This document shows positions 10,972-26,495 of a stretch of DNA of 64,000 bases, one piece after another. The position numbers and the translations under genes were made by a program. Below the pieces are notes generated by a model that saw only the letters and a program-made list of their open reading frames with translations, did no database searches and was not told the DNA's origin. The first letter of the stretch is position 1. Each line of letters begins with the position of its first letter. Origin of the DNA: an uncultured Clostridia bacterium (lineage in GTDB: Bacteria; Bacillota; DTU025; MWDF01). The DNA lies in the NCBI GenBank assembly GCA_964545975.1, contig CAZJHY010000001.1, positions 24,094 through 88,093 of the forward strand, in the 5' to 3' direction.

Positions 10972-11065
10972 GGGATAACCTCCTCGATGTTAACATGTTA
11001 GACGATTAAATTGTATCAAATACAAACGGCATGTCAACATCATCCAAGGGGCTCTCCTTGATTTT

Positions 11066-11713
11066 CTACTTGTTCTGCCCGTAAGTCCTGCCGAGGGTGG
11101 AGACCAATGCCTTCACCTGTTCGTCAGTTAGTGAGGATGCCCTGCCTATTTGCGAGGCGTGTATATAGCACGAGCACATCTTCTCCAGAAGCTCGCACCT
11201 TTCAAGGGCCTTCTCAGGCGTGTCAGCGACGCAGACTGACCCGTGATTGGACATTATTGCTGCATTCTTGCTTCCTAGCGCCTTCGCGACGTTCTTTGCT
11301 AGGTCGTCGCTTCCAGACATAGCATAATCCGCTACCTCTACAGCGCCTCCGAAGCTGAAAGCGCATATATCAGTTATGACCGGAAGAGGCATCCTTGCTA
11401 CGCCAAGGGCTATCGCCATGGGTGAATGAACATGAACGACGGCTTTAACCTCAGGCCTGGCAATGTAGATCTCCCTGTGCAGCATGCTTTCTACCGAGGG
11501 CTTAAGCTTTGATGAGGAATACAGTGTCGCCAGATCCAGCTCTACTATCTGCTCAGGGGAAAGCGCCTCATAAGGTATGCCGCTGGGGGTTATCAGCATC
11601 CCGGTTCCTGATTCATTCCTGCAGCTGACATTCCCTCCGGTGCCTATAGTAAGCCCCATTTCCATCATCTTGATGCCGGTCTGGATAATTCTTCTGTTAA
11701 GCTGCTCGTTCAT
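11066..11713 (-). CDS. class II aldolase/adducin family protein (L-fuculose-1-P aldolase / L-ribulose-5-P 4-epimerase-like)
   Basis: TGIKMMEMGLTIGTGGNVSCR N-terminal motif, HVHSPMAIA metal-His motif. Confidence 0.8.
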   Translation of the reverse strand: MNEQLNRRIIQTGIKMMEMGLTIGTGGNVSCRNESGTGMLITPSGIPYEALSPEQIVELDLATLYSSSKLKPSVESMLHREIYIARPEVKAVVHVHSPMAIALGVARMPLPVITDICAFSFGGAVEVADYAMSGSDDLAKNVAKALGSKNAAIMSNHGSVCVADTPEKALERCELLEKMCSCYIHASQIGRASSLTDEQVKALVSTLGRTYGQNK

Positions 11714-12151
11714 CTTTCTCCTCCATCTGTGGCTGTTGTATTGCCAGTACGAAATTATACAGTCAATTGCATATTAATATAGCACAATAACCTAACCAGG
11801 TGCGAAGGAGCACGCTGTTTTTAATGTGAGTCAAATACATTGCAAAAGCACAGCATAAAAGCGGTATTGCTTGCATCAGCAGGACACTGCTTCCTGAATA
11901 CTGGATTCAGCTTCCTGACGCTTGTCTAGGCAGTTTGATGTATATTTTCCTCCACATAAATGATATTCTATATTAAAGCGTTTCCGGATAGTTGTATATT
12001 ATTGGTACAATCTCCATTAGTATACAATCCAGAAAGGGGTGTTCGGCAGGCAGCTAACCACGGTAGTACCAAAATTACTAGCGACCAATCGCAAGTGGGA
12101 CAAGAAATCAATCTCCAGCGAGAAGTATAAGCAATTAGGGGAGGGAATCTT

Positions 12152-13162
12152 GTGAAGAGAACATTGTTAATCGCGGTTGTACTAGTCATGGCACTAACCA
12201 TCGTAACCGGCACTTTCGCAGCGACTACGCCTCTGTTGGTATCGGGCGGCGGTCTTAAGACGACCACTACCGTCAAGGCCAACTCGAAGTATCTCATCGC
12301 TTGCATCGTTAAGAACTCCACCAATCCTTACATGATCAAGCAGCTTGACGGCTTCAAAGCCGCCGGCGCATTCATGGGCTTCGACGCCGTCGCACTGGCT
12401 CCCGCCAAGGCCGACAACATCGAAGAGCAGGTCAAGATAATCGAAGACCTCATCCAGAAGGGCGTCAAGGGCCTCGTCATCCATCCTTCCGACTCCAACG
12501 GCATAGTCCCGATAGTCGAGAAGGCCATGTCGCTCGGCATCCCCGTGGTCGTAATAGGTACCCCGGCGAATACCGACAAGATATTCTTCCGCACCGGCAT
12601 GGACTATACCGACTCTGGCCGCAAGATCACCGAAGCTGCCATCCAGAAGATGGGCGGCAAGGGCAACGTCATAATACTTGAGGGCCCGCCCCAGGCGATC
12701 AACGCCAAGGAAAGGCTCAACGGCATGCTCGAAACTATAGCCAAGTACCCCGGCGTAAAGGTGCTTGACTCCCAGACCGCAAACTTCAACAGGCTCAACG
12801 CCCTCCAGGTCATGGAGAACCTCCTTCAGAAGCACAAGGACGTGCAGGGAGTCTTCGCGGCCAACGACGAGATGGCCCTCGGCGCGATCCAGGCTCTTGA
12901 AGCCGCCGGCAGGAAGAACGTGGTAGTCTCCGGCGTCGACGGAAGCAAGGACGCCTCGCAGGCGGTCCTCGAAGGCAGGCTCACAGTGACCTCGAATGCA
13001 GACCCCTATTCCAGCTCCTGGTGCGCCGCAGCATACATCGTGAAGTACTTGAACGACGGCACCATGCCGCCCTCCAAGTTCATCCCGTATCCCGCTGAAG
13101 TCGCCATCATCGACAAGAGCAACGTTCAGAACTACATCAACAACGACGCGTGGTGGAAGTAG
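12152..13162 (+). CDS. sugar ABC transporter substrate-binding protein (RbsB/ribose-type PBP family)
   Basis: signal peptide, type I PBP with FAANDEMALGA motif; GTG start after GGGGAGGGAA. Confidence 0.85.
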   Translation: MKRTLLIAVVLVMALTIVTGTFAATTPLLVSGGGLKTTTTVKANSKYLIACIVKNSTNPYMIKQLDGFKAAGAFMGFDAVALAPAKADNIEEQVKIIEDLIQKGVKGLVIHPSDSNGIVPIVEKAMSLGIPVVVIGTPANTDKIFFRTGMDYTDSGRKITEAAIQKMGGKGNVIILEGPPQAINAKERLNGMLETIAKYPGVKVLDSQTANFNRLNALQVMENLLQKHKDVQGVFAANDEMALGAIQALEAAGRKNVVVSGVDGSKDASQAVLEGRLTVTSNADPYSSSWCAAAYIVKYLNDGTMPPSKFIPYPAEVAIIDKSNVQNYINNDAWWK

Positions 13163-13180
13163 TCTCATAGAAGTCCTGCT

Positions 13181-13210
13181 ATGGAGCCCTGTCGCAAGAC
13201 GGGGCTCCAT
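13181..13210 (+). other. GC-rich intercistronic hairpin after SBP gene
   Basis: ATGGAGCCC (loop 12) GGGCTCCAT, 9 bp perfect stem. Confidence 0.5.
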
Positions 13211-13231
13211 GCACCCAAGGGGGCGTTATTT

Positions 13232-14752
13232 TTGGAGATAGTACCTATCCTCGAAGCGAGGAACATCAGCAAGGAGTTCCCGGGCGTAAAGGCGTTGGAT
13301 GAAGTATCCATACAGGTAAGGCCCGGCGAGGTCCATGTACTGATAGGAGAGAACGGGGCCGGAAAGAGCACGCTGTCCAAGATACTCATGGGAGTGTATA
13401 CCAGCGACAAGGGCGAGATCCTGTTCGATGGTAAGCCCGCCCACATTAGGAACCCTCATGACGCAAGGGCATTAGGCATATGCGGTGTCCATCAGGAGTT
13501 CATGCTTGTACCCTGGATGAACGTCGCACAGAACATCTTCATCAACAGAGAGCCCAGGATTTGGCCGGGGCTTCCCTTCATAGACCACAAGAAGATGCAC
13601 GAGGACAGCAGGAAGCTGCTTTCCTCCTTCAACGTGAACATCAACACCAAGCAGCCGGTGAAATACCTGGACACCGCGCTCCAGCAGATGGTGGAGATAG
13701 TAAAGGCGCTATCTACGAACCCCAAGGTCCTGATACTTGACGAACCGACTGCAGTCCTCACGGACAGGGAGGTCAACAGCCTCTTCGCCCATATAGAGGA
13801 GCTGAGAAGCCGAGGGGTTGCGATCATATACATATCGCACAGGCTTCCTGAGATCAGAAGGATAGGCGACAGGGTCACGGTCCTAAGAGACGGGAAGTAT
13901 GTAGCAACGGTTGACATCAAGGACACCCCCGACGAGGAGCTCATCAAGATGATGGTGGGCAGGAGCGTTTCGCAGCTTTATACCAGAAACCGCCAGGTTC
14001 CCGGGAAAGAGGCCCTGAGGCTTGAGAATTTCAGCGTGAAGGGCGGACCGCAGAATGTCGACCTGGTGCTGCACTACGGAGAGATCATTGGGCTTGCGGG
14101 CCTGATTGGTTCAGGGCGCACCGAGCTTGTCAGGGGCATCATGGGAATTGACCAGCAGACAGGCGGTTCCCTTTACATCGATGGCAACAAAGTCACGGTC
14201 GGAAGCCCTGACAAGGCGATAGGACTGGGGCTGGGGCTTCTGCCTGAGGACCGCAAGAGGTATGGCCTCGCCCTTAAGACGAACATCGCCTGGAATACCA
14301 TAATGGCGAGCCTCAAGCGGGAGTTCCCCAAGGGAGTAGTAAGGGAGCGCAAGGTGCGCGACATCGCCCAGGGCTATGTTAAGCAGCTGAAAATCGCCAC
14401 AGACTCGGTATCTAAGGTGGTGGGCTTCCTAAGCGGAGGCAACCAGCAGAAGGTTGTCGTCGCCAAGTGGATCAACACCAAGGCCAAGATCCTCATCTTC
14501 GACGAACCTACAAGGGGCATCGACGTGGGGGCCAAGGCAGAGGTGCACGCCCTCATGGACAAACTGGTGGCCGAAGGAAACGCGATCATAATGATTTCCT
14601 CCGACCTGCCGGAAGTCCTCGGGATGAGCGACCGCGTCTACACGATATTCCAGTGCCGTTCCATGGGGGACTGCTGCTTCCAGGAGGCGAACCAGCAGAG
14701 AATCGGCTCCCTTATGCTGGGAGTGGGGGTGAAGACAGATGCAAACCAGTAA
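13232..14752 (+). CDS. sugar ABC transporter ATP-binding protein with two NBDs (RbsA/MglA-like)
   Basis: two Walker A/signature sets (GENGAGKST; LSGGNQQK); TTG start at 13232 after AAGGGGG; the longer ORF from 13181 is rejected because it overlaps the hairpin. Confidence 0.8.
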   Translation: MEIVPILEARNISKEFPGVKALDEVSIQVRPGEVHVLIGENGAGKSTLSKILMGVYTSDKGEILFDGKPAHIRNPHDARALGICGVHQEFMLVPWMNVAQNIFINREPRIWPGLPFIDHKKMHEDSRKLLSSFNVNINTKQPVKYLDTALQQMVEIVKALSTNPKVLILDEPTAVLTDREVNSLFAHIEELRSRGVAIIYISHRLPEIRRIGDRVTVLRDGKYVATVDIKDTPDEELIKMMVGRSVSQLYTRNRQVPGKEALRLENFSVKGGPQNVDLVLHYGEIIGLAGLIGSGRTELVRGIMGIDQQTGGSLYIDGNKVTVGSPDKAIGLGLGLLPEDRKRYGLALKTNIAWNTIMASLKREFPKGVVRERKVRDIAQGYVKQLKIATDSVSKVVGFLSGGNQQKVVVAKWINTKAKILIFDEPTRGIDVGAKAEVHALMDKLVAEGNAIIMISSDLPEVLGMSDRVYTIFQCRSMGDCCFQEANQQRIGSLMLGVGVKTDANQ

Positions 14753-15704
14753 GCTCATGGGCTTTTTGAGGAAGGTCCCGCCGGCGACATACATCATACT
14801 GCTCATGATAGCCATATACGGCATCGCCGCGCCCGGCTTCTTCACCCTTGGAAACCTCGAGAACGTCGGAAACCAGGCGGCCCCCCTTCTCATCGTCGCC
14901 ATAGGTGTGACCATGGTCATCATGACGGAGGGTACAGACCTTTCGATCGGTTATGTGATGGGCATGGTCGGAGTCGTTGTATCGATTATGCTTAGGGCGA
15001 AAATCTGGATAGGCTGGGCGTTCCTTGCCGGCATCGCGGTAGGGGTGTTCTGCGGCTTCATAAACGGCGTCGCAGTCGCAAAGCTCAAGCTTCCTCCGTT
15101 CATTGCTACGCTTGGTACCGGAAACGTCATATTCGGAATAGGCCTCGTCATAACCGAAGGATACTCCATACAGGCACTTGATCCTGCGCTGCTTTTTCTG
15201 GCAAGCGGCAAGGTGTTCGGAATAAGCATGCCGATACTGATTGCCACGGTGGTCTTCGGGTTATGCTGGGTACTCATGAACTACACGCCGTTCGGGCGCA
15301 ACATAGTCTCTCTCGGAGGCAACTCCGAGGCGCTTAGAGGCGTTGGCCTTAACGTCGGGAAAGCCTCCATATCGGTATACATGATGTGTGGCTTCCTTGC
15401 GGCAATAGGAGGCCTCATAGTGGCGTCAAGGACAGGCTCAGGCTATTCGGCGGCTGCCATGGGATGGGAGTTCGACGCCATCGGAGCCAGTATAATCGGC
15501 GGTACATCCTTCGAGGAGGGCAATGGATCCATAAGCAGGACCGTAATTGGTGTCGCGCTCATATCGATACTCAGAAACGGCCTTAATGTCGTGGGCGTGC
15601 CGAACATGTACCAGTACGCGCTCATCGGCGCCATAGTGCTGACGGCCATAATCCTGGACGTTCGCTTCAGGCAGGCCGCGAAGGGAGGCGTCAAGAGAGT
15701 ATGA
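14739..15704 (+). CDS. sugar ABC transporter permease (RbsC family)
   Basis: multi-TM; overlaps ATPase stop. Confidence 0.8.
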   Translation: MQTSKLMGFLRKVPPATYIILLMIAIYGIAAPGFFTLGNLENVGNQAAPLLIVAIGVTMVIMTEGTDLSIGYVMGMVGVVVSIMLRAKIWIGWAFLAGIAVGVFCGFINGVAVAKLKLPPFIATLGTGNVIFGIGLVITEGYSIQALDPALLFLASGKVFGISMPILIATVVFGLCWVLMNYTPFGRNIVSLGGNSEALRGVGLNVGKASISVYMMCGFLAAIGGLIVASRTGSGYSAAAMGWEFDAIGASIIGGTSFEEGNGSISRTVIGVALISILRNGLNVVGVPNMYQYALIGAIVLTAIILDVRFRQAAKGGVKRV

Positions 15705-16696
15705 ACGAAGGTTCAAGGATGAAGGACACCCCCAAGGCGGTCGCAATCGTAAACGACAGGCTCAAGGCAAGGGAGGCCATAGCTCCCCTCTTCAGGCTCA
15801 CGTTCCTGATAGTCCTCATGATCGCACTTTCCATACTCAGCGAGGACTTCTTCACATGGAGCAACCTAATTAACGTTCTCAGGCAGTCGACTTTCCTGAT
15901 AGTAATCGGCCTCGGGCTCACAGGGGTGCTGCTTACCGGAGGCATCGACCTGTCCGTAGGCGGTGTGCTCGCATTCGTGGGCTGCGCGACTGGACAGATG
16001 ATGAGATCCGGCGTTCCGCTTTATCTTGCAGTGCCAATCGGTCTTCTAATCGGAGCGGGAGTCGGATGCTTCAACGGTTTCATGGTGGGGTACATCAAGC
16101 TTCCTCCGTTTGTGGCCACTTACGGTTCCAAGTGGATATCCGAGGGCATGGCGCTGCTTCTTATGCAGGGGCAGGTCATCTACGGCTTCCCGAGGGTGTA
16201 CCGCTGGATCGGCATCGGCTACATAGGACCCATACCAGTGCCCATCATAATTGCTGCCATCCTTGCGGTAATAATGAACTTCCTGTTCGTGAAGACCGTA
16301 TTCGGCAGGCAGGTATATGCACTGGGCGCCAACAAGGAAGCAGCATTCTACTCGGGCATCAAAGTCAAGAAGAACATCATGGTGGTATACACCCTTGCTG
16401 GCCTCATGGCGGGCATTGCCGGCCTTCTGATGCTTGCAAGGCTTGACGCCGCCGAGGTGAACATGGGAGAGGCCCTGCAGCTGCAGTCCCTCGCCGCGGT
16501 CATCATCGGGGGTGCATCCCTTCGCGGAGGCGAGGGCAGCATATTCGGCACGATAATTGGCGCCATAACCCTTACGCTGGTCGTAAACGGGCTTAACCTG
16601 CTTGGCGTGCGCTCTTTGTGGCACTCAGTGGTGCTCGGCGGCGTCATCCTGGCATCCGTGATAATGGACCTGCGCATGAAGAAGCTGGCGCAATAA
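15701..16696 (+). CDS. sugar ABC transporter permease (RbsC family, second copy)
   Basis: multi-TM paralog of preceding gene, ATGA overlap. Confidence 0.8.
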   Translation: MNEGSRMKDTPKAVAIVNDRLKAREAIAPLFRLTFLIVLMIALSILSEDFFTWSNLINVLRQSTFLIVIGLGLTGVLLTGGIDLSVGGVLAFVGCATGQMMRSGVPLYLAVPIGLLIGAGVGCFNGFMVGYIKLPPFVATYGSKWISEGMALLLMQGQVIYGFPRVYRWIGIGYIGPIPVPIIIAAILAVIMNFLFVKTVFGRQVYALGANKEAAFYSGIKVKKNIMVVYTLAGLMAGIAGLLMLARLDAAEVNMGEALQLQSLAAVIIGGASLRGGEGSIFGTIIGAITLTLVVNGLNLLGVRSLWHSVVLGGVILASVIMDLRMKKLAQ

Positions 16697-16727
16697 GGAT
16701 TAGCAGAAAGAAAAAGGAGGAACACCA

Positions 16728-17537
16728 ATGGCCAACCTTACGATCAGACCCATAAACACCGGTTACGCGGAAACCTACAAGAAGCAGTACCAGTACCATC
16801 ATTCTACCCACAAGTACCACAACGTCGACGACGGAAAGCTTCTTCTGCCCTGCATGGCATTCCTTATCGAGGGCGGAGACAAGCTCGTGCTGGTAGACAC
16901 CGGCATGTCCAACACCGAGATAGCCAACAAGTATCATCATCCGGGTTCGTACCAGCCTGACGGCTTTGCGATACATGAGCAGCTGGCGAAGCTGGGCATC
17001 AAGTGCGAGGACATCGACATTGTCATCTTCACGCACATGCACTGGGACCACATGCACAACATGGAGAAGTTCGTAAACGCCAGGTTCATCGCCCACAAGA
17101 AGGAATGGGAGTTCTGCCAGAACCCCATCCCGCTGTACTACAAATCATACGAGCATCCCAAGCTCGGCATAAAGGCTCCCTTCACTGGCCTTAAGATCGA
17201 GACCGTAGAGGGCGAGCAGGAGATAGTCCCCGGCATAAGGGTGTTCGAGAGCTTCGGGCATTCGCCGGGCCACATGTCCGTGGAAGTCGACTGCGAGGAC
17301 GGATCCTACATCCTCTGCGGCGATGCGGTATTCATCTACGACAACCTTAAGCCCGTGCCGGACATGTTCTATGAGATTACTCCCCCGGCCAGGTATGCCA
17401 ACATCGTCGAGTGCTGGAACAGCATAGTCGAGATGAAGCATAGGGCCAAGGAGCAGCGCTTCATACTGCCCTCCCATGAGCCTGAGATAGAGGAGCTCGC
17501 GAAGAAGTACGGAACTTTCCCGATACCCAAGAAGTAA
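16728..17537 (+). CDS. MBL-fold metallo-hydrolase (AiiA-like lactonase family)
   Basis: HxHxDH zinc motif in FTHMHWDHMHN; RBS AAAAGGAGG. Confidence 0.75.
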   Translation: MANLTIRPINTGYAETYKKQYQYHHSTHKYHNVDDGKLLLPCMAFLIEGGDKLVLVDTGMSNTEIANKYHHPGSYQPDGFAIHEQLAKLGIKCEDIDIVIFTHMHWDHMHNMEKFVNARFIAHKKEWEFCQNPIPLYYKSYEHPKLGIKAPFTGLKIETVEGEQEIVPGIRVFESFGHSPGHMSVEVDCEDGSYILCGDAVFIYDNLKPVPDMFYEITPPARYANIVECWNSIVEMKHRAKEQRFILPSHEPEIEELAKKYGTFPIPKK

Positions 17538-17619
17538 CATCACACCGATTGGGGGTGCGGCCGGGAGGCAGGTCCAAGGGGGCGCGGGCCTCCGAAGACA
17601 GCCAACCCGGCCTTGTCAT

Positions 17620-18843
17620 ATGAAGACTATCGCAGTGATAACCTCGCTGGACACGAAGGGGAAAGAGACCCTCTATATAAAGGATGCGATCGAGAGGTTC
17701 GGCTCGAAGGCTCTCATCATAGACGTAGGGGTCAAGGAGCCGCCATATTTCACGCCTGATATCGCAAGGCACGAGGTGGCCGCCGCCGCCGGCATCGACT
17801 GGGATACGGTGAAGGACAAGGAGAAAAGGGTGAGGATAAGCACCATGACCTCAGGCCTTGAGGTGCTTATACCCAAGCTATATGCCGAGGGGAAGCTTTC
17901 GGCCGTGTTCTCGATGGGAGGCCTTCAGAACACAACGATGGGAACATCGGCGATGAAGACCCTGCCGCTCGGGGTGCCTAAGCTCATGCTTTCCACGATG
18001 GCGTCCAGCAACAGGCCTTTCGGTCCGTTCGTGGGAACCAAGGACATGACCCTCATGCACTCGGTGGGCGACATCCTAGGGGTAAACCCCGTCACCAAGG
18101 CCGTGATGGATAACGCCGTCGGAGCCATCGTGGGGATGGCGGAGCACGCCGGAAACAGGGTGCAGAAAACTGACAGGATCCTTGTGGGTGCCACTATGCT
18201 CGGCGTAACGAACGACGGAGTGAGCCGCGCGGTATCCTACCTCGAGGAGGCAGGCTACGACGTGGTCACCTTCCATGCGAACGGTGCGGGAGGACCGGCC
18301 ATGGAGGAGCTCATAGGACAGGACACGATAGACGCCGCGATGGATCTTACGCTGCATGAGATAGACGCTGAATTCTTCGGGGGGCACTGTTCGGGGGCGA
18401 CCAACAGGCTCCTTATGGCCGCCGAGAAGGGGATACCCCAGGTTGTTTCGCTTGGTGCCTCCGACGTCATAGACTATGAGGTCGTGGACCTCGACAAGGT
18501 AAGGGAGTATGGAAGGCGCAAGTTCGTCTATCAGCACCCCACCATCCAGCACATAAAGCTCATAGAGGAAGAGGCGCACAAGGTCGGGACGGTAATCGGG
18601 GAGAGGCTCTCAAAGGCCAAGGGTCCCCTAACCCTCGTCATACCTAGGGGAGGCTTCCACCAGAGCAGCTACAAAGGCGGTCCCATATGGGATCCTGCCA
18701 TCGACGAGATAATCATAGGACACATACTAAGCAGGATTGCGCCTTCCACAAGGGTGGTAGAGACCGCAGCCCATATCAACGAGCCCGCCTTCAGCAGGGT
18801 GGCGGCCGATGAGATGATTAAGCTTCTGAAGGCCATGCGCTAA
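17620..18843 (+). CDS. UPF0261 (Tm-1-like N-terminal domain) family protein
   Basis: N-terminal MKTIAVITSLDTKGKE pattern and ~400 aa length typical of UPF0261; product by recollection of family only. Confidence 0.5.
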   Translation: MKTIAVITSLDTKGKETLYIKDAIERFGSKALIIDVGVKEPPYFTPDIARHEVAAAAGIDWDTVKDKEKRVRISTMTSGLEVLIPKLYAEGKLSAVFSMGGLQNTTMGTSAMKTLPLGVPKLMLSTMASSNRPFGPFVGTKDMTLMHSVGDILGVNPVTKAVMDNAVGAIVGMAEHAGNRVQKTDRILVGATMLGVTNDGVSRAVSYLEEAGYDVVTFHANGAGGPAMEELIGQDTIDAAMDLTLHEIDAEFFGGHCSGATNRLLMAAEKGIPQVVSLGASDVIDYEVVDLDKVREYGRRKFVYQHPTIQHIKLIEEEAHKVGTVIGERLSKAKGPLTLVIPRGGFHQSSYKGGPIWDPAIDEIIIGHILSRIAPSTRVVETAAHINEPAFSRVAADEMIKLLKAMR

Positions 18844-18875
18844 GCAGGGCCAGAAGCCTCACAAGGAGGATTCCG

Positions 18876-20132
18876 ATGTTCTACGGACTGCCTTTCGACA
18901 ACCCCGAGTCCATTTATGGCAGGGATTACGTTCTGGGCACCTATTTCGTGACCGGCGTCACAGGAGACGATGCGCTTAATAAGCTGGGCATGTTTGCAGT
19001 CGGCCAGTCCACCGGCACGTGGATGCCGGTGCCCGGCATAACCAGGCAGATGGTGGAGGATCATCAGGGAAGAGTCGTCGGATGCTATCCGGTGCCCGCC
19101 CAGGAGCCCGGCGCCTACGTTCTTAGGGTGGCGTTTCCCTACAGCAACATAGGCGGGTCCATCTCGATGCTGCTTACCACGCTTGCGGGAAACGACGCTT
19201 CGACTGCGCTGTGCGCGAAGCTCATAGACGTGGAGCTTGTCGGCAAGGCGAAGTCGGCCTTCCACGGTCCGCACTTCGGAATAGACGGGGTGAGGAAGCT
19301 CACGGGAGTCTACGACAGGCCCATAGTCATGAATATGATCAAGCCTTGCACGGGCTTTCCGGCTACGGCAGGGGCGGAGTTCTTCTACGCGTCCGGATCA
19401 GGCGGCGTAGACATAATAAAAGATGACGAGCTTATGGGCAACACCAGCTTCAATTCCGTCGCCGACAGGGTGAGGGAGTATGGTAAGGCTCAAGCGAGAA
19501 TCGGAGGAGAGAGGGGCAAGGCCCCTATATACCTTCCCAATGTGACCGACAGGCACGATAAAATGCGCGACAACATCAAGGCGGCGATAGACGGCGGAGC
19601 GAAGGGCGTCATGGTCAACTTCGTCTTCACCGGACTCGACAGCCTTGCCGCGCTTACATCGGAGTTCGGCGACAAGGTGATGTTCCTCGCTCATGCGGCA
19701 GGAGTTGGCGTCATGACCGGTTATCCGCAGGGCTTAAGCACCTCGCTTCTTCTAGGAAGGCTCGGAAGGCTGGCAGGCGCGGACGCGGTGGTCACCCTTT
19801 ATCCTCTCGGCATGGGAGGAGACGGCTTCCAGGAGCTTCAGATGACGGTGCAGAAGCACAGGCTGCCTCTGGGAGATGTCAAGCAAGCCTTGACCGTGGT
19901 CGGAGGAGGCGTCACGCCGCTTACCGTACCGTTTGCGGTGAAGAGCTTCGGCAAGGACATAATCATCGCCGTTGGCGGTGGCATCCAGGGCCACCCGGAC
20001 GGGGCGACGGCAGGCGCAAAGGCCATGATGGCTGCGGTGGATGCGACCATGAAGGGCGTAAGCCTGGAAGACGCGGTTAAGGACAGCCCGGAGCTCGGAA
20101 GGGCGATAACCAGATGGGGCAAGAAGGCTTAA
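18876..20132 (+). CDS. RuBisCO-like protein (form IV RuBisCO large-subunit homolog)
   Basis: GGVDIIKDDE aligns with RuBisCO GGLDFTKDDE (carbamylated Lys and Mg ligands retained); IKP (K175 equivalent) present; no small subunit or PRK nearby; RBS AAGGAGGA. Confidence 0.8.
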   Translation: MFYGLPFDNPESIYGRDYVLGTYFVTGVTGDDALNKLGMFAVGQSTGTWMPVPGITRQMVEDHQGRVVGCYPVPAQEPGAYVLRVAFPYSNIGGSISMLLTTLAGNDASTALCAKLIDVELVGKAKSAFHGPHFGIDGVRKLTGVYDRPIVMNMIKPCTGFPATAGAEFFYASGSGGVDIIKDDELMGNTSFNSVADRVREYGKAQARIGGERGKAPIYLPNVTDRHDKMRDNIKAAIDGGAKGVMVNFVFTGLDSLAALTSEFGDKVMFLAHAAGVGVMTGYPQGLSTSLLLGRLGRLAGADAVVTLYPLGMGGDGFQELQMTVQKHRLPLGDVKQALTVVGGGVTPLTVPFAVKSFGKDIIIAVGGGIQGHPDGATAGAKAMMAAVDATMKGVSLEDAVKDSPELGRAITRWGKKA

Positions 20133-20169
20133 GGGCCGCCCGAATGATGACCGTATGGAGGTAAAGCAG

Positions 20170-20793
20170 ATGGAAGATCTTATCATGAGCATAAAAAGGG
20201 ACGTGGAGCTCGCCTGCAGGAGGGCGTACACGAGGGGAATACAGACCGGAAGCGGCGGAAACGTCAGCGCAAGGATACCGGGCACGGACCATATGATAGT
20301 GAAGCCAAGCAAGGTGTCGCTCATCGAATGCGACCCCGAGACGCTTATCATAACCGACTTCGACGGAAACTTGGTGCAGGGCTCTCTTCCTCCTACGAGG
20401 GAGGCGGTGCTTCACGGCTGGCTGTATAAGAAGTTCGGCAAGATCGGAGCGGTGGTTCACACCCATTCGCCCTGGGCTATATCCTGGTCCTTCACCAGGA
20501 GGGACCTTCCCAATATTACCATGCATACTCAGCTTAAGCTGGGATGCCCCATCCCGGTCAGGTTCTTCTCCAGCCCCAAGGGGGTTCTGAAGGAGGAGAT
20601 GCCAGAAGTCTACGGCCTTTTCGAGAAGGAACCGAACCTCGCCGCCTTCATACTCGGTGCGCACGGTGTGGTCGCAGTCGGCGACAATATCATAGAGGCC
20701 GAGCACACGGCGGAGCTCATAGAGGAGACGGCACAGATAGCATACCTGCACGAGATGGGATTGAAGCTCGGGATGTTCCCCGAGGGCAGATAA
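20170..20793 (+). CDS. class II aldolase/adducin family protein
   Basis: GIQTGSGGNVSAR, HTHSPWAI motifs; start at ATG 20170 after GGAGGT. Confidence 0.8.
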   Translation: MEDLIMSIKRDVELACRRAYTRGIQTGSGGNVSARIPGTDHMIVKPSKVSLIECDPETLIITDFDGNLVQGSLPPTREAVLHGWLYKKFGKIGAVVHTHSPWAISWSFTRRDLPNITMHTQLKLGCPIPVRFFSSPKGVLKEEMPEVYGLFEKEPNLAAFILGAHGVVAVGDNIIEAEHTAELIEETAQIAYLHEMGLKLGMFPEGR

Positions 20794-20822
20794 GACGAAG
20801 ACAATCCGAACGGAGTGATCAT

Positions 20823-21284
20823 ATGTACAGGAAGATGGTAATAGGCTGCGACGAGGCGGCCTGTGAGCTGAAAAACGCCCTTATCGAGGTCCTTAAGAAG
20901 AAGGGAATTGAGTATGAGGACGTCGGAGTGCCGGATGCAAGCGACAAGACCTATTATCCCCTGGTGGCAGAGAAGGTGGCCGAGGCGATAATAGAAAGCG
21001 GCTATGAGAAGCACGGGATGCTCCTCTGCGGAACGGGCATCGGCATGGCCATATCCGCGAACAAGCACCCCGGGGTATTTGCCGCTGTATGCCACGACCA
21101 GTATTCTACCGAGAGGGCGAAGCTGAGCAACAACTGCAACGTCATCTGCATGGGGGCAAGGGTCATAGGGCCAGAGCTTGCCAAGAAGAACCTGGAGCAA
21201 TGGCTTGAGCTGACGTTCAAGGACGGCTCCTCGACCCCTAAGGTGGAGGCTGTGAAGGATATCGAGAAGAGGCATATGAAATGA
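20823..21284 (+). CDS. RpiB/LacA/LacB family sugar-phosphate isomerase (ribose-5-P isomerase B-like; possible tetrose-P isomerase)
   Basis: MVIGCDEAA...LLCGTGIGMAISANK with catalytic Cys-region; ~153 aa. Confidence 0.8.
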   Translation: MYRKMVIGCDEAACELKNALIEVLKKKGIEYEDVGVPDASDKTYYPLVAEKVAEAIIESGYEKHGMLLCGTGIGMAISANKHPGVFAAVCHDQYSTERAKLSNNCNVICMGARVIGPELAKKNLEQWLELTFKDGSSTPKVEAVKDIEKRHMK

Positions 21285-22075
21285 GGAGCCCGCTTCTTGT
21301 CGGCACGAACCTCAAGATGTACAAGGGCGTGAAGGAGACGCTGGAGTTCCTTTCGCGCCTTGCGGGAAACGTCAGCCACATAGGCAGCGAAGACATGACG
21401 CTCTTCGTCATACCCTCCTACCTTGCCCTTCATGCGGCATGCGGGTCTGATGCGCACAGCAGGATACTCCTTGGCGCGCAGAATCTGCACTGGGAGGACT
21501 CCGGGCAGTTCACCGGTGAGATATCCCCCATGATGCTCAAGGAGATAGGCATAGATATCGCTGAGATCGGCCACTCGGAACGAAGGCAGCTTTTCGGTGA
21601 GACGGACGTGACAGTGGGGCTTAAGGCCAAGGCAGCGCTCAGGCACGGCATGAGGGCCCTGGTATGCATAGGGGAGACCGCAGACGACAAGGCGTCGGGC
21701 ATTACCTATGAGAAGCTGAGGATGCAGGTGAAGGTGGCCTTAAAGGGGATTTCTGCGGATGAGCTCGAGGGGCTTTGGGTAGCATACGAGCCGGTATGGG
21801 CCATCGGGATCCACGGGGTCCCGGCTGAGCCCGGATACGCCGAGAAGAGCCACAGGATGATAAAAGACGTGCTGGAAGAGCTTTACCCTAATAAGGGCGC
21901 AGGCGTTCCCGTGCTGTACGGCGGAAGCGTCAACATGGAAAACGCCATGGAGCTCATCGTCCAGCCGAGCATAGACGGCTTGTTCATAGGAAGGACCGCT
22001 TGGGACGCGGACAGGTTCGCGTCGCTGATCAAGGATGTCCTCCCCTTGTGGAAGGCCAAGGCTGAGAGAGAATAG
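21281..22075 (+). CDS. triose-phosphate isomerase family protein (TpiA-like, divergent N-terminus)
   Basis: GHSERR, AYEPVWAIG (catalytic Glu), YGGSV; N-terminal GTNLKMYKG instead of canonical GNWKMNK. Confidence 0.8.
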   Translation: MRSPLLVGTNLKMYKGVKETLEFLSRLAGNVSHIGSEDMTLFVIPSYLALHAACGSDAHSRILLGAQNLHWEDSGQFTGEISPMMLKEIGIDIAEIGHSERRQLFGETDVTVGLKAKAALRHGMRALVCIGETADDKASGITYEKLRMQVKVALKGISADELEGLWVAYEPVWAIGIHGVPAEPGYAEKSHRMIKDVLEELYPNKGAGVPVLYGGSVNMENAMELIVQPSIDGLFIGRTAWDADRFASLIKDVLPLWKAKAERE

Positions 22076-22104
22076 GGCAAGGCTTACGAAGGCGGTGTGA
22101 TGCA

Positions 22105-22776
22105 ATGGCGGACATGGTCATGGAGGCGAAAAGGCAGTTAATAGAGATCGGAAGGCAGATAGCTGCCAAGGGACTTGTGATAGGACCCGGCGGAAATACC
22201 AGCTTAAGGGCAGGCGCCCTCATGGTGATATCCGCCAGCGGCTCTTCATTCGAGTGCTCCGACGAGAGCGACTACGTCGCGATAGACATAGAGACAGGAA
22301 AACAGGCCGACGGCGGCAAGAGGCCGTCTTCCGAAGTGCTGATGCACCTTGAGTGCTACAGGAGGCGCCCGGATGTAAACGCTGTAGTCCATACCCATCC
22401 GACGTGGTCGACATCTGTAGCAAGCTCGGGCACCAAGATGCCCCCGATGTTCCCGGATTACGTCGTGTTCGTGGGCAAGCCCGCGACCCTGGATTACGTG
22501 ATACCGACGACGAAGCTTCTGGCCGATGCCGTGGCCGAAGTCATAGGGGAGCATAATGTGGTGCTCATGAGCAATCACGGGGTGCTTGCCGTCGCAGGCG
22601 ACCTCAAGATGGCGCTATTAAGGGTGGAGCTGGCAGAGGAGAACGCAAGGATGCTCGTGATAGCAAACTCCCTCGGCAAGCCGCGATCCCTTACGGATGC
22701 CGAAGTCCAGGCGATATTTGACCTGGAGAGCGAGAAGTACAGGCAGAGGCTTCTGAAAAACGAGGGCGGGAAGTAG
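22105..22776 (+). CDS. class II aldolase/adducin family protein
   Basis: GLVIGPGGNTSLR, HTHPTWS motifs. Confidence 0.8.
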   Translation: MADMVMEAKRQLIEIGRQIAAKGLVIGPGGNTSLRAGALMVISASGSSFECSDESDYVAIDIETGKQADGGKRPSSEVLMHLECYRRRPDVNAVVHTHPTWSTSVASSGTKMPPMFPDYVVFVGKPATLDYVIPTTKLLADAVAEVIGEHNVVLMSNHGVLAVAGDLKMALLRVELAEENARMLVIANSLGKPRSLTDAEVQAIFDLESEKYRQRLLKNEGGK

Positions 22777-22798
22777 TCCTAAAAAGGAGGACGCACCA

Positions 22799-24271
22799 TT
22801 GTCCGACAGGCTTTTCATGGGGATAGACGTGGGCACGGGCGGAGCCAGGGTCATAGTCTGCGACGAGTACGGGTTGCCCCTGGCGGAAAGCTCGAGGCCG
22901 TTTGCCGCAGGTGCCGGCGCATCTGACATGCCCCAGGGCTGGCATCAGCAGTCGCCCGCAGCCTGGTGGGACGCGACTTCCGCATGTATAAGGCAGGTCA
23001 TGGGCTCACCCGGACTCGGCGGAAATCCTGGCAGGGTGTTCTCTGTTTCCGTCACATCCACATCAGGTACTGTGATCCCGCTTAGGGAGGATTGCGAACC
23101 GCTCTGGGATGCGGTCATGTACAACGACAGCAGGTCGTCCGCGCAGGCGGAAAGGGCGAACGAGGCGCTTAAGGAATTATGCGGGAAGCTCGCCTACAGG
23201 TTCGACACATCCTTCGGGCTTCCGAAGATGCTATGGTTCATGGACAGCAAGCCTGAGCTGTTCAGAAGGACCAGATTCTTCGTCCACGCTGGCGATTATA
23301 TTATCGGGAAGCTCTGCGGCTGCTTCGGTTTCACCGACTATTCCAACTCGCTGAAGTCTGGATACGACATCGATGAGCTGATATGGCCGAAGGAGATAGA
23401 GGAGAAACTGGGCGTCCCGGCGTCCAAACTGCCGGAAGTGCTCGCCCCGGGCACGGTAGTCGGGAAGGTCTGCGCCGCCTGCTCCGCAGAGACGGGCCTT
23501 CCGGAAAGCACCAACGTCGCGCTGGGCATGACGGACGGCTGCGCCTCGCAGATTGCATCGGGTGCCGCGTCCTTAGGCGACTGGAACACCACGATCGGCA
23601 CAACGCTTGTAATCAAGGGGGTCACCGAGAGGCTCCTCTTCGACCCGAAGGGAAGGATATACAGCCACAGGCATCCCGACGGGCACTGGATGCCAGGCGG
23701 GGCCAGCAACGTCGGCGGCGACTGCATAAGAAGCAACTTCCGCGACGATGAGCTGGATACGCTGAACGCGTCCGTGCGCCCTGAGAAGCCGACAGGCATG
23801 CTGGTGTACCCTCTGGAGAAGAAGGGCGAGAGGTTCCCGAACAGAGATCCTTTGGCAGAGGGGTTCATAATGGGAAGCCCATCAGGAAGGCCCGAGCTCT
23901 ATCAGGCCTACCTTGAGGGTGTTGCGCTGGTGGAGAAGATGTCATACGAGATGCTTCAGAGCTTGGGGGCGGCAATCGGTGACACGATCTTTGCGGCGGG
24001 AGGCGCCACGAAAAGCGAGCCATGGCTCAAGGTAAGGTCGAATATGCTCGACCGGCGCATTGCAGTCCCGGAGATTGCAGGAGGATTCATGGGAGCCGCC
24101 ATACTAGCAGCTTCCCTCTCCCATTGGGGCTCGCTCGGTGAGGCTGCCAAAAACATGGTAAAAATTTCCAAGACGATATGCCCGGACCCTGCCGCTGTCG
24201 ATGCCTATAAGGATAAGTACGGGCAGTTCATAAGAGAGATGGGAAGCAGGGGATATACCCTGGAGGGATGA
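22799..24271 (+). CDS. FGGY family carbohydrate kinase (xylulo-/ribulo-/erythritol-kinase-like)
   Basis: N-terminal GIDVGTGGARV, ~490 aa two-domain ASKHA kinase; TTG start after AAAGGAGG. Confidence 0.8.
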   Translation: MSDRLFMGIDVGTGGARVIVCDEYGLPLAESSRPFAAGAGASDMPQGWHQQSPAAWWDATSACIRQVMGSPGLGGNPGRVFSVSVTSTSGTVIPLREDCEPLWDAVMYNDSRSSAQAERANEALKELCGKLAYRFDTSFGLPKMLWFMDSKPELFRRTRFFVHAGDYIIGKLCGCFGFTDYSNSLKSGYDIDELIWPKEIEEKLGVPASKLPEVLAPGTVVGKVCAACSAETGLPESTNVALGMTDGCASQIASGAASLGDWNTTIGTTLVIKGVTERLLFDPKGRIYSHRHPDGHWMPGGASNVGGDCIRSNFRDDELDTLNASVRPEKPTGMLVYPLEKKGERFPNRDPLAEGFIMGSPSGRPELYQAYLEGVALVEKMSYEMLQSLGAAIGDTIFAAGGATKSEPWLKVRSNMLDRRIAVPEIAGGFMGAAILAASLSHWGSLGEAAKNMVKISKTICPDPAAVDAYKDKYGQFIREMGSRGYTLEG

Positions 24272-24275
24272 TGAT

Positions 24276-25673
24276 ATGAGCATTTACAAGGCCTGCGACA
24301 TAAGGGGAGTCTACCCTTCGTCGCTCGACGAGAAGACGTCATACGATATAGGAGCGGCTTTGGGGGAGATGCTCGGCCCTGTAAGCATGCTCGTCGCAGG
24401 CGACGTGAGGGTCAGCACGCCGCCTTTGAAGCAAAGCCTTATAAACGGCCTTGTGGACGCCGGATGCGAAGTAGTGGACATCGGCATGGCCCCGACCCCG
24501 GCCTTCTACTACGCGCTTCATAAGCTGGGCACCGAGTCGGGCGTGACGGTGACGGCATCCCATAATCCGGCCAAGTACAACGGCTTCAAGATAGCGCCGC
24601 ACGGGCAGCCCATGACTGAAGACGTGATGGACGACCTGAGGAAGATGGTCGAAGCTGGAGGATTCAAGCCATATGGGCAAGGGAGCGTAAGGAAGGCTGA
24701 GGTCATCGAGGATTACAAGAGATTCGTGCTTGATAAGATAGGAGAGCTAACGGGAACGAAGTGCAGCGCTCATGGTTCGAGTAATGCCCTCAAAGCCGTG
24801 GTGGACTGCGGCAACGGCTGCTACAGCACGATAGCCCCTGAAGTTCTAAGGCAAGCTGGCATCGCGGTTGAGGAGCTCTATTGCTGGGAGGATGGAACTT
24901 TCCCTAACAGGGAGCCAAACCCAGCTGTAGCTGAGAATCTCGAGGCTTTATGCGGCAAGGTCAGAGATACGGGGGCAGACCTTGGCATTGCCTTCGACGG
25001 GGACGGTGACAGGGTGGTCTTCGTGGACGAGCTGGGCAAAGTGGTCCCTAGCGACAATGCGATAGCACTTTTCGCCGGCTTCCTCCTTAAGAATCACCCC
25101 GGCTCGAAGGTGGTTTTCGACATCAAGTGCTCAAGCCTTGTGTCGGATTCGATCAAGGCGGCGGGCGGCATTCCAGTGATGGAGAAGTCAGGCCACGCTT
25201 ACATCAAGAACAACCTGCTGAGAAACGGCGCGGTTTTCGCAGGCGAGATCAGCGGGCACTTCTTCTTCCAGGTGCTCAAGGGGGATGACGGGCTGTTCGC
25301 GGCTCTTCTGATGGCCGAGATCATGATGTCGGAGGGCAGAAGCCTGGGGAAGATGGTGGAGTCGCAGCCGAAGTACTTCACTACAAGAGACTTCAGGATA
25401 CCGTTCTCGGGGAGCACGGCCGAGCTGTTCGGAAGGCTCAAAGCGCGCCTTGAGGCAAGCGGAGGCGCAAACCTGTCGTACCTGGACGGCATAAGGGCGG
25501 AGTTTTCTGAAGGCTGGGGGCTTATAAGGGCATCAGTCACTGAGCCACTGGTTACGCTGAGGTTCGAGGGGAAGTCGTTGGAGAGCCTTGATAGGATAAG
25601 GGATAGCTTCCTTGCTGCAGATGAGGACTTGCTTGATGCCGTAAGGGAGGTTTGGGCAAACCATCTTCCTTAG
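24276..25673 (+). CDS. phosphohexomutase (phosphomannomutase/phosphoglucomutase family)
   Basis: active-site TASHNPAKYNGFK phosphoserine loop. Confidence 0.85.
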   Translation: MSIYKACDIRGVYPSSLDEKTSYDIGAALGEMLGPVSMLVAGDVRVSTPPLKQSLINGLVDAGCEVVDIGMAPTPAFYYALHKLGTESGVTVTASHNPAKYNGFKIAPHGQPMTEDVMDDLRKMVEAGGFKPYGQGSVRKAEVIEDYKRFVLDKIGELTGTKCSAHGSSNALKAVVDCGNGCYSTIAPEVLRQAGIAVEELYCWEDGTFPNREPNPAVAENLEALCGKVRDTGADLGIAFDGDGDRVVFVDELGKVVPSDNAIALFAGFLLKNHPGSKVVFDIKCSSLVSDSIKAAGGIPVMEKSGHAYIKNNLLRNGAVFAGEISGHFFFQVLKGDDGLFAALLMAEIMMSEGRSLGKMVESQPKYFTTRDFRIPFSGSTAELFGRLKARLEASGGANLSYLDGIRAEFSEGWGLIRASVTEPLVTLRFEGKSLESLDRIRDSFLAADEDLLDAVREVWANHLP

Positions 25674-25685
25674 CCGAATGGACGT

Positions 25686-26372
25686 CTACTTCTCGGTGAA
25701 CTCCCTCATATAGCACTCGTATTTGCTGCAGTTCACCTGTATTCTCCTGTTTACGCTCCGGATGAATCCTTCGTTGGCAAGCTCGTTCATTAGCTTGCTT
25801 ACGGTCACCCTTGCAGCTCCTACGATGACTCCCAGCTCATAGTGCGTGTATCTCACCTTGAGCTCATACCAGCCGGGGTCGGCCTCGGCTTCCCTGTCGA
25901 CAGAGGAGCAGAGAAGCCTTGCTATCCTGTCCTTGCATGAGTTGAAGGTCAGGTTTTCAATCTCGAACCTGGTAATCAGGAGCTTCGTCGCCAGGCAACG
26001 GATGAATGCGTCCCTGAAGACAGCGCTGCTGTCCAGAAGCTGCCTCACCTTGTCCGGCGGTATCTTGCAAAGGACGACATCGGTCTCGGCTTGGGAGTAA
26101 AGTCCGGTCTTCCTTCCCAGGTAGAAGCCCATCTCACCGAAGAGCCAGCCCGGAGTGAGAGCATAGAGGACCTTTTCAAGCCCGTCCTCGTTCGCCATGA
26201 AATGCTTGGTCCTGCCCGACTTGATGTACAAGACGCCGCCGAAATCGCTCCCGGGCACAGAGAAGAGCGTCTTGGCAGGATAGGTAACCCTAATCGAGTT
26301 CTGCTCGATTATCTTCTCCAGTGCCTCGTTGTATGCATCGGGCATTAAGAGCCCCGTCTCCTCAAGGCGCAA
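25686..26372 (-). CDS. Crp/Fnr family transcriptional regulator
   Basis: cNMP-binding beta-roll then C-terminal HTH (HYELGVIVGAARVTVSKLMNELANEGFI). Confidence 0.8.
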   Translation of the reverse strand: MRLEETGLLMPDAYNEALEKIIEQNSIRVTYPAKTLFSVPGSDFGGVLYIKSGRTKHFMANEDGLEKVLYALTPGWLFGEMGFYLGRKTGLYSQAETDVVLCKIPPDKVRQLLDSSAVFRDAFIRCLATKLLITRFEIENLTFNSCKDRIARLLCSSVDREAEADPGWYELKVRYTHYELGVIVGAARVTVSKLMNELANEGFIRSVNRRIQVNCSKYECYMREFTEK

Positions 26373-26495
26373 AATGAACCACCTCCTGCAACTTTCATTC
26401 TACCATCACTGGAGATCCTTTTCCCTCTGCCTTGAGTTGAGGTGAAAAAGGTTTCATTAGCAGCAATGATGCAGAGCTGTTCCGTATTGCCGCAA

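Follow-up and report, generated by a model that had tools for sequence, protein, structure and literature searches.

A UPF0261 protein encoded directly upstream of a RuBisCO-like protein as a probable kinase of a sugar-acid or lactone pathway

A 64,000-nucleotide stretch of genome from an uncultured Clostridia bacterium (GenBank assembly GCA_964545975.1, contig CAZJHY010000001.1, positions 24,094 to 88,093; hereafter the window) encodes a UPF0261/Tm-1-like two-domain ATP-binding protein of 407 amino acids (17620..18843, + strand, ATG start) directly upstream of a RuBisCO-like protein (RLP; 18876..20132, +). Through comparison of this protein, its operon and related loci in other genomes, we propose that the UPF0261 protein is an ATP-dependent kinase of a small hydroxylated acid or lactone within a catabolic operon of modular order, a reading to which we give a probability of roughly one half. 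It most likely represents a new kinase type for the pathway, rather than a helper of the RLP, and the adjacency of the two genes would mark the junction of two modules and not a physical accessory relationship.

The assignment to UPF0261, put forward in a sequence-only reading of the window, was borne out by profile searches that recovered both Pfam domains at full length. PF06792 (UPF0261 N-terminal; E=4.3e-54) covers residues 2-176 (profile 1-173 of 176), PF23189 (UPF0261_C; E=2e-61) covers residues 187-402 (profile 2-217 of 218), and the protein passes NCBIfam NF002674 with 397.2 bits against a curated cut-off of 335. Its sequence matches both family members whose structures have been solved, MarK (9mpy; E=1.3e-43), to which phmmer aligns residues 4-395, and tomato Tm-1 (3wry; E=6e-41). 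An AlphaFold2 model built from 38 homologues (pLDDT 93.5, pTM 0.85) returned the same two proteins in Foldseek (Tm-1 3wrx_A, TM 0.86; MarK 9mpy, TM 0.63; E of about 1e-35). Beyond Tm-1 and MarK, no PDB entry in that search covers both domains, and the weaker matches are to Rossmann-like epimerases and glycosyltransferases, that is, sugar-nucleotide enzymes. The protein is a true full-length UPF0261 member with the two-domain alpha/beta/alpha fold of Tm-1 and MarK.

MarK (Saro_1862; 9MPY) of Novosphingobium aromaticivorans, described in 2025, is the only UPF0261 protein with a measured activity: it phosphorylates acetovanillone and related phenols at the expense of ATP, releasing ADP (PMC12624787). 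When Glu16 of its ATP site is changed to Lys (E16K), the rate rises about 1600-fold; the counterpart of this residue in Tm-1 is K20, in contact with the alpha-phosphate of ATP. The oxygen that accepts the phosphoryl group is held by hydrogen bonds from G195 and H219, and H348, H304, F283 and I285 surround the aromatic ketone (PMC12624787). Across the 38 homologues of the window protein, D11, K13, G195, F218 and H219 are invariant. HMMER alignment places K13 on MarK K16 and Tm-1 K20, the lysine of the ATP alpha-phosphate, and pairwise alignment places G195 and H219 on the acceptor-oxygen-binding G195 and H219 of MarK, whereas the aromatic-pocket residues F283, I285, H304 and H348 become V283, D285, Q305 and S349. 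The alignments indicate that the catalytic scaffold is retained and that the pocket is different from, and more polar than, that of MarK; neither the substrate pocket nor the operon type is that of a MarK-type aromatic (acetovanillone) kinase. The UPF0261 protein is probably a kinase of a pathway intermediate.

The sequence-only reading had suggested a nucleotide-dependent activase or a kinase-like accessory of the RLP. Its kinase-like part agrees with the MarK precedent and the retention of K13; the activase or accessory part does not stand. A Walker A motif (GxxxxGK[ST]) was sought in the protein and not found, and neither an AAA+ nor a MoxR fold is among the Foldseek matches of the model, which argues against an activase; the hallmarks of the RuBisCO activases (AAA+ for Rca and CbbX, MoxR for CbbQO) are lacking. 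An accessory role is also unsupported because RLPs of the same signature occur without UPF0261, beside FGGY kinases or phosphotransferase system (PTS) genes.

Conservation of the pairing was followed in 79 loci around UPF0261 relatives from species-representative genomes and 80 loci around RLP relatives from metagenomes. Neighbouring genes were assigned by tblastn, the queries being the window proteins and proteins identified by Pfam in other loci, and all statistics come from these assignments. In the 56 loci with UPF0261 proteins of at least 36% identity, the genes found within 6 kb were a metallo-beta-lactamase (MBL)-fold, lactonase-like hydrolase (42 loci), a class II aldolase/adducin-family protein here called AldA (40), an RLP (32), an RpiB-like isomerase (26) and a triose-phosphate isomerase (TIM)-like protein (23); a creatininase-family hydrolase occurred in three and the phosphoenolpyruvate (PEP)-hydrolase-like PF09370 in none. 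The picture is similar for the 36 such loci with 3 kb on both flanks (MBL 30, AldA 31, RLP 23, TIM 17, RpiB 19, creatininase 1, PF09370 0). Below 36% identity (23 loci, within 6 kb), creatininase is present in 17, AldA in three, MBL and TIM in one each, and RLP, RpiB and PF09370 in none.

On the same strand and no more than 300 nt downstream of UPF0261, an RLP gene is found in 44 loci, of which 25 are from species genomes and 19 from metagenome contigs, so the predicted co-occurrence with RLPs is seen well beyond the window. Because RLP genes are rare, the pairing is not due to chance. Carriers of the window arrangement include Bacillota (Clostridia, Christensenellaceae and an Aneurinibacillus metagenome-assembled genome [MAG]), Acidobacteriota and Anaerolineaceae, and Ruminiclostridium has the same genes in another order. 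RLP linkage is found in at least four separate UPF0261 lineages, one of them paired with PF09370. Of 19 RLP-centred loci that extend 3 kb or more to both sides, 14 contain UPF0261; the other five include three with FGGY kinases and one with a PTS permease. This complementarity of UPF0261 to other phosphorylating systems (14+3+1 of 19) is expected if UPF0261 supplies the phosphorylation.

It had also been stated that UPF0261 proteins usually pair with a PEP-hydrolase-like gene and that the RLP occupies the partner position here. The first statement holds for the family at large, for which a link between COG5441 (UPF0261) and COG5564 (PEP-hydrolase-like, PF09370) has a STRING score of 0.988 as quoted in PMC8963296, but not for the subfamily of the window (0 of 79 loci). 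PF09370 was seen only beside distant UPF0261 proteins of 28-33% identity (L124, L126 and L127). The second statement fails: besides the absence of PF09370 from the 79 related loci, the RLP is not a replacement for PF09370 because both are present together in L124 and L127. The human gut locus L124 (8887-15232) reads DeoR-RLP-Amidohydro_2-PEP_hydrolase (PF09370)-UPF0261 (28% identity)-MBL and so joins a distant, independent UPF0261 lineage and its canonical PF09370 partner to the same RLP subfamily and two lactonase-type hydrolases; L126, also a human gut contig, is alike, and in L127 the RLP is near two PF09370 genes and a UPF0261.

The most constant neighbours in the UPF0261 subfamily are the MBL lactonase-like protein and AldA, not the RLP. 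Loci with the MBL-UPF0261-AldA trio but no RLP are known from Spirochaetota, Treponema primitia, Agromyces, Oscillospiraceae, Lachnospiraceae, SAR324 and Rhodospirillales, the trio often adjoining carboxylate-type transporters (the tripartite ATP-independent periplasmic [TRAP] protein DctP, or KdgT) and GntR/FCD regulators. A neighbour-joining tree built from 117 UPF0261 sequences places these contexts inside a large, mostly RLP-linked clade. Distant clades (33-37% identity) have a creatininase-family hydrolase instead of MBL, sometimes with AldA and never with an RLP. One subclade without MBL (L028, 7757-13683; L023, L026, L031 and L035-L037) carries a tungsten-type aldehyde:ferredoxin oxidoreductase (AOR) and a 99-amino-acid open reading frame (ORF) with no Pfam match, both directly upstream of UPF0261-RLP.

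The RLP, for its part, co-varies with the TIM-like and RpiB-like genes across loci and occurs with them in the absence of UPF0261, MBL or AldA. For example, L103 has the order RLP-RpiB-TIM-FGGY-phosphosugar mutase (PGM) without UPF0261. Similarly, L131 (2275-13481) reads transketolase-RpiB-TIM-(DeoR)-RLP-GlpA-like FAD dehydrogenase-Pyr_redox_2-DUF1667-FGGY-PTS IIA/IIB, and no AP_endonuc_2-type (EryC-like) gene is among the neighbours scanned there. From the L131 context, a tetrulose or ketose phosphate is the suggested substrate of this RLP subfamily.

The two genes of the window are arranged as the sequence-only reading had it: the UPF0261 stop codon ends at 18843, the RLP ATG is at 18876 on the same strand, and the 32-nt spacer carries an AAGGAGG Shine-Dalgarno sequence 7 nt before the RLP start. 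The RLP (418 amino acids; RuBisCO_large PF00016, 2.5e-39) belongs to form IV and to an uncharacterised subfamily with the signature Q44, N106, K156-P-C158, K182-D-D184-E185 and H273. It has the RuBisCO large-subunit fold with the metal site kept and the carboxylase residues lost. The K-D-D-E carbamate/metal motif and the equivalents of K175, H294 and N123 are retained, whereas E60, K177 and R295 are altered to Q, C and A, and H327 and K334 are absent (partly by motif reading); as aligned, these residues would fit proton abstraction and reprotonation better than carboxylation. No curated NCBIfam cut-off for MtnW, form III RuBisCO or OiaX is reached. Scores for 2,3-diketo-5-methylthiopentyl-1-phosphate (DK-MTP-1-P) enolase are 265.8 against 409 bits and 220 against 513.6 bits, and the model for OiaX, the 3-oxo-isoapionate-4-phosphate decarboxylase of apiose catabolism, gives 128 bits against a cut-off of 700. 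The nearest solved relatives are the Alicyclobacillus RLP 4NAS and the DK-MTP-1-P enolases 2OEK and 2ZVI (E=2e-60 to 1e-55).

Where the enolases have Lys98 (G. kaustophilus numbering), this RLP has Asn106. Lys98 is reported to be the general base of DK-MTP-1-P enolase (Imker 2007). The public names of the subfamily's RLPs, where given, are those of DK-MTP-1-P enolases (JGI names), an annotation contradicted by the missing Lys98. MtnW of methionine salvage was rejected on the same ground, together with the scores below cut-off and the lack of methionine-salvage genes nearby. An OiaX-type identity was rejected on its 128 bits against 700; the operon genes scanned carry neither a DUF1537 nor a dehydrogenase domain. 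The substrates of all characterised RLPs are phosphorylated and resemble ribulose-1,5-bisphosphate, and the enzymes work through chemistry initiated by enolisation, as enolases, isomerases, decarboxylases or oxygenases; few RLP functions are so far known (PMC10176493). A wider signature (Q44, T48, W49, N106, K156, C158, K182, D184, E185, H273 and R298) is shared across contexts and identical in UPF0261-linked, FGGY-linked and PF09370-linked loci. An RLP of a different type is found in a Spirochaetaceae MAG (L025, 2579-12727), whose cluster comprises MBL, an ATP-binding cassette (ABC) transporter, UPF0261, a SorC-type regulator, AldA, RLP and RpiB; this RLP, at 28% identity, has Glu in place of N106 and Asn in place of C158.

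Both genes belong to a tightly spaced run of 13 genes on one strand (12152-25673). It opens with a periplasmic sugar-binding protein of the CUT2/ribose-binding type (12152..13162, +; Peripla_BP_4 4.6e-59), which falls under all NCBIfam cut-offs (best RbsB, 153 against 337 bits) and has the ribose-binding protein 2ioy as its best PDB match. Weaker matches to 5ibq and 4ry0, presumably apiose-related binding-protein structures, are not decisive as a hint of D-apiose, since ribose-binding proteins match better. There follow a sugar ABC transporter ATPase with two ABC domains (13181..14752, +; ABC_tran, xylose/ribose-type NCBIfam matches all below cut-off), two permeases (14739..15704, +, BPD_transp_2 2.4e-40; 15701..16696, +, BPD_transp_2 3.1e-38) and the MBL-fold, lactonase-like hydrolase (16728..17537, +; Lactamase_B 3e-24), whose best NCBIfam matches, 4-pyridoxolactonase and AiiA, are below cut-off and whose best PDB matches are AiiA lactonases at about 1e-17.

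Downstream of the RLP lies AldA, of the aldolase, decarboxylase or epimerase type (20155..20793, +; Aldolase_II 9.4e-37). It scores below cut-off for the 3-oxo-tetronate-4-phosphate decarboxylase OtnC (84.9 against 250) and for PRK06557, L-ribulose-5-phosphate 4-epimerase (117.4 against 251). Columns that presumably correspond to the Zn-ligand His residues and the catalytic Glu of E. coli FucA are invariant in eight sequences; by its profile matches AldA is a class II aldolase-family member whose specificity the curated models do not assign. An RpiB/LacAB-family sugar-phosphate isomerase (20823..21284, +; LacAB_rpiB 2.5e-46; start chosen from the sequence) matches the RpiB subfamily with 159 bits (cut-off 135) and, second, the D-erythrulose-4-phosphate isomerase DerI with 151 (cut-off 240). 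It is followed by a TIM-family protein (21281..22075, +; TIM 1.5e-72; NF000722 295.8 against a cut-off of 293 bits) and by a second class II aldolase-family enzyme, AldB, resembling fuculose-1-phosphate aldolase (22105..22776, +; Aldolase_II 1.7e-42) and seen solely in the closest relatives of the window. The run ends with an FGGY-family carbohydrate kinase (22799..24271, +; FGGY_N/C; best NCBIfam xylulokinase, 194 against 380 bits), confined to L003, L005, L006 and, without UPF0261, L103, and a phosphosugar mutase of the phosphoglucomutase/phosphomannomutase family (24276..25673, +; PGM_PMM_I-IV, NCBIfam below cut-offs). By Pfam and NCBIfam, no dehydrogenase is encoded in the operon; no sugar dehydrogenase was found in ten further window ORFs (329-9868 and 28626-37152), no DUF1537 domain in the operon genes scanned and no PF09370 in the operon by Pfam.

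We propose the following scheme for the operon. The ribose-type ABC system would import a sugar or sugar lactone, and the MBL lactonase-like enzyme would open the lactone to an acid; in some anaerobes the tungsten AOR would take its place and form the acid directly. UPF0261 would then phosphorylate the acid using ATP, in the role held by the unrelated DUF1537 kinases (OtnK, OiaK) of acid-sugar pathways, and AldA would decarboxylate or cleave the phospho-acid to a ketose phosphate. A second module of RLP, TIM-like and RpiB-like proteins would link the product to central metabolism, with erythrose-4-phosphate as one possible entry point; here the RLP would epimerise or isomerise a ketose-1-phosphate through enolisation of the RuBisCO type. 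Both the second-best match of the RpiB-like protein, DerI, and the erythritol-like cluster of L131 fit a three-isomerase endgame for this module. The placing of AldA between kinase and RLP, rather than a direct passage from kinase to RLP, is a more tentative part of the scheme, somewhat short of an even chance.

In its widest form, the proposal would make UPF0261 a second family of sugar-acid or lactone kinases, a non-homologous replacement for DUF1537, which together with this RLP subfamily defines a dehydrogenase-free route from an oxidised sugar to erythrose-4-phosphate. The route would start from a plant- or microbe-derived lactone, a branched-chain acid or a keto acid and be found in genomes of Bacillota, Acidobacteriota and Chloroflexota and in gut and soil metagenome contigs. 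In the boldest version, the kinase would form an enol- or acyl-phosphate on which the RLP performs new C-C chemistry. We regard the generalisation as possible, at about one chance in three. Two other routes were considered and rejected. For an ascorbate (Ula-like) route, UlaG is not among the NCBIfam matches of the MBL protein and the resemblance is pure analogy. An AI-2 (Lsr) route was raised by weak Lsr matches of the transporter and the FGGY kinase, but the latter occurs only in the closest relatives and there is no LsrF or LsrG.

Several points weigh against our proposal. The only biochemical precedent, MarK, acts on phenols and not on sugars, and the kinase role is read from sequence; moreover, the ATP and substrate sites of MarK are about 25 Å apart (PMC12624787). 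Known routes oxidise their substrate to a 3-oxo acid and the operon has no dehydrogenase, so the chemistry may differ from the analogy; the nutrient might be oxidised already, the oxidising enzyme might be encoded elsewhere, or the reactions might be of another kind. Nor would the window and its closest relatives be short of a kinase without UPF0261, since they also encode an FGGY kinase. The neighbour labels (MBL, AldA and others) denote tblastn similarity to window proteins. The invariance of the RLP signature is partly built in for L083-L162, which were retrieved with the patterns N-M-I-K-P-C and G-G-x-x-Q-G-H-P-x-G; L006-L050, retrieved via UPF0261 only, carry the same signature. Finally, the strict order of UPF0261 then RLP in 44 loci would equally fit consecutive steps.

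That last point makes a direct order a serious rival, precisely because UPF0261-RLP order is so strictly conserved. Here UPF0261 would make a phosphorylated (keto-)acid that the RLP decarboxylates or cleaves, as OiaK and OiaX do in D-apiose catabolism, with AldA, TIM and RpiB acting afterwards. The short gap in the 44 loci and the linkage in at least four UPF0261 lineages, the PF09370-paired one included, speak for it, as do the resemblance of the RpiB-like protein to DerI and a match in functional classes (lactonase, kinase, RLP, TIM-like and RpiB-like) to the apiose RLP route reported by Carter et al. 2018. On the other hand, MBL-UPF0261-AldA clusters exist without an RLP, and RLPs of the same signature occur without UPF0261 or AldA, beside FGGY kinases, polyol-phosphate dehydrogenase or PTS genes. 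The RLP also falls far short of the OiaX cut-off (128 bits against 700), and the operon has no oxidoisomerase or dehydrogenase to make a beta-keto acid. We consider consecutive steps unlikely on balance, at something like one chance in four.

In a further rival reading, UPF0261 would be an ATP-dependent activating enzyme and not a simple alcohol kinase. It would make an acyl- or enol-phosphate by phosphorylating an acidic oxygen, and so prepare a substrate for C-C bond chemistry by the RLP, which might be carboxylation or transcarboxylation. The phenolic OH on which MarK acts is acidic, the domains of MarK have been described as ATP-grasp-like, and a carboxylation step is reported for its acvCDEF operon. 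The cluster substrates appear to be carboxylates (TRAP, KdgT and GntR context), and the family's usual PEP-hydrolase-like partner implies enol-phosphate chemistry. Yet carboxylase residues are missing from the RLP (Q for E60, C for K177, and neither K334 nor H327) and the reaction has no precedent, which leaves this idea improbable.

We think still less of UPF0261 as a non-catalytic ATP- or ligand-binding sensor, or of an adjacency without functional meaning. Wild-type MarK was nearly inactive before E16K and the family was long uncharacterised, but the gene is conserved in the operon across several phyla, its catalytic-site lysine is native and invariant, and its distribution is complementary to that of other kinases. 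A nucleotide-dependent activase, chaperone or regulatory accessory that binds the RLP, suggested by the adjacency and by Tm-1 binding another protein through an ATP bridge, is the least credible of all, given the lack of a Walker A motif and AAA+/MoxR fold, MBL and AldA neighbours that persist when the RLP is absent, RLPs found without UPF0261, and conserved residues of a small-molecule acceptor site.

The comparison also brought out other features of the window and the loci. The 82-nt MBL-UPF0261 spacer (17538-17619) contains a GC-rich inverted repeat, GGAGGC...GCCTCC, at about 17565-17595, and the UPF0261 ATG has no obvious Shine-Dalgarno sequence, unlike that of the RLP (AAGGAGG); the spacer element could serve in mRNA processing or translation control. 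Promoter and terminator counts at 11000-27000 equal the shuffled expectation and therefore have no bearing on operon boundaries, and the whole window has no Rfam match and therefore no riboswitch clue to the ligand. A 338-amino-acid ORF antisense to the sugar-binding-protein gene (12194-13210, -; no Pfam or NCBIfam match) is almost certainly spurious. The window holds four class II aldolase/adducin-family genes: besides AldA (20155-20793, +) and AldB (22105-22776, +), one is divergent and just upstream of the operon (11066-11713, -) and one lies 12 kb downstream beside a major facilitator superfamily transporter (34967-35758, +). There are two dihydrodipicolinate synthase (DHDPS)-family genes, at 8972-9868 and within 26599-30506; behind the latter come genes for an NMT1_3-type binding protein and a large DctM-type TRAP permease. 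The stretch 26599-30506, set apart from the operon by a Crp-family regulator (25686-26372, -), may be a distinct locus for the use of organic acids. At 97% identity, the window resembles an uncultured Clostridia MAG (L004).

Among the related loci, L024 has both the MBL gene and AOR, and L028 has a URO-D-like gene downstream. L117, L121 and L151 each combine two UPF0261 paralogues with MBL, RLP and URO-D-like genes, and L121 adds a DeoC-family aldolase. L075 (7571-12163) and about 15 other acI/Planktophila and Actinomycetota loci carry UPF0261 proteins of 33-35% identity; this conserved freshwater actinobacterial cluster has the order FAD-linked oxidase, xylose-isomerase-like TIM barrel (AP_endonuc_2), UPF0261 and creatininase-family hydrolase, and it constitutes another uncharacterised UPF0261 pathway.

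Our literature searches returned no report linking UPF0261 to RLPs or to sugar metabolism. What is new here is probably the use of a non-homologous kinase family and an uncharacterised RLP subfamily in a kind of kinase-dependent acid-sugar or lactone pathway that is already known. UPF0261 proteins occur in all three domains of life, and Tm-1, which confers virus resistance on a plant, is one of them. The family had no known catalytic activity before 2025 and then one, on lignin-derived phenols. If our proposal is true, the family has a second, probably much commoner physiological role in carbohydrate-acid catabolism, and the uncharacterised RLP subfamily gains a testable handle. Anaerobes of gut, soil and peat carry the clusters (Christensenellaceae, Oscillospiraceae, Ruminiclostridium and Acidobacteriota), and the pathway may therefore matter for the turnover of plant-derived sugars.

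Relative to known systems, the window protein is closest in kind to MarK: both are stand-alone members of the same two-domain family encoded early in a catabolic operon, with G195 and H219 conserved, and in the window the ATP-site lysine is native (K13). The two proteins are about 26-27% identical in the Foldseek alignment and differ in the pocket (F283V, I285D, H304Q and H348S); the window protein neighbours sugar-type genes for transport and sugar-phosphate enzymes, not genes of the acvCDEF/hpeCBAD type. The N-terminal region of tomato Tm-1 (3WRV-3WRY) likewise shares the fold and the ATP-binding lysine, but Tm-1 is a protein-binding inhibitor of viral replicase, whereas we read the window protein as a metabolic enzyme. 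Unlike the UPF0261 and PF09370 pair, the window protein has no PF09370 partner or fusion, nor do the 79 related loci within 6 kb.

For the pathway as a whole, the DUF1537 systems are the nearest analogy. Zhang 2016 and Carter 2018 reportedly place the DUF1537 kinases OtnK and OiaK alongside the class II aldolase-family decarboxylase OtnC and, for D-apiose catabolism, the RLPs OiaX and OiaT; the apiose RLP route of Carter et al. 2018 is said to comprise a lactonase, a kinase, an RLP and TIM-like and RpiB-like isomerases. In a general scheme for C4-C6 sugar acids, a 3-oxo acid passes to a DUF1537 kinase and then to a class II aldolase-family decarboxylase, with C6 acids handled in vitro (PMC12994016). 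The proposed route would resemble these in its sequence of lactone-derived acid, kinase, class II aldolase-family enzyme and/or RLP, and TIM-like and RpiB-like isomerases. It differs in that the kinase is non-homologous, the RLP is of another subfamily, AldA reaches 85 against the OtnC cut-off of 250, and there is no dehydrogenase or oxidoisomerase. The RLP itself, like MtnW/YkrW and 4NAS, keeps K-D-D-E and the K175 and H294 equivalents; unlike MtnW/YkrW, it has Asn106 for Lys98 and no methionine-salvage genes near.

The second module recalls erythritol and apiose catabolism, which end in three-isomerase modules (EryC/EryH/EryI and LerI/DerI). In Brucella, the erythritol isomerases are reportedly the racemase EryC, EryH/TpiA2 and EryI/RpiB (Barbier 2014). 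As there, TIM-family and RpiB-family isomerases lie side by side in a sugar cluster, and in L131 they are accompanied by an FGGY kinase and a GlpD/GlpA-like FAD dehydrogenase, as with EryA and EryB; unlike in Brucella, the RLP stands where the AP_endonuc_2-type racemase EryC would be, its function there being inferred. Lastly, the E. coli Ula system for L-ascorbate consists of the MBL-fold lactonase UlaG, the decarboxylase UlaD, UlaE and the class II aldolase-family epimerase UlaF. Ula differs from the window operon in phosphorylating via the PTS and decarboxylating with an enzyme of the orotidine 5'-monophosphate decarboxylase family, but the two are alike in running from a lactone by a dehydrogenase-free route, with an MBL-fold lactonase, a class II aldolase-family enzyme and phosphorylated intermediates.

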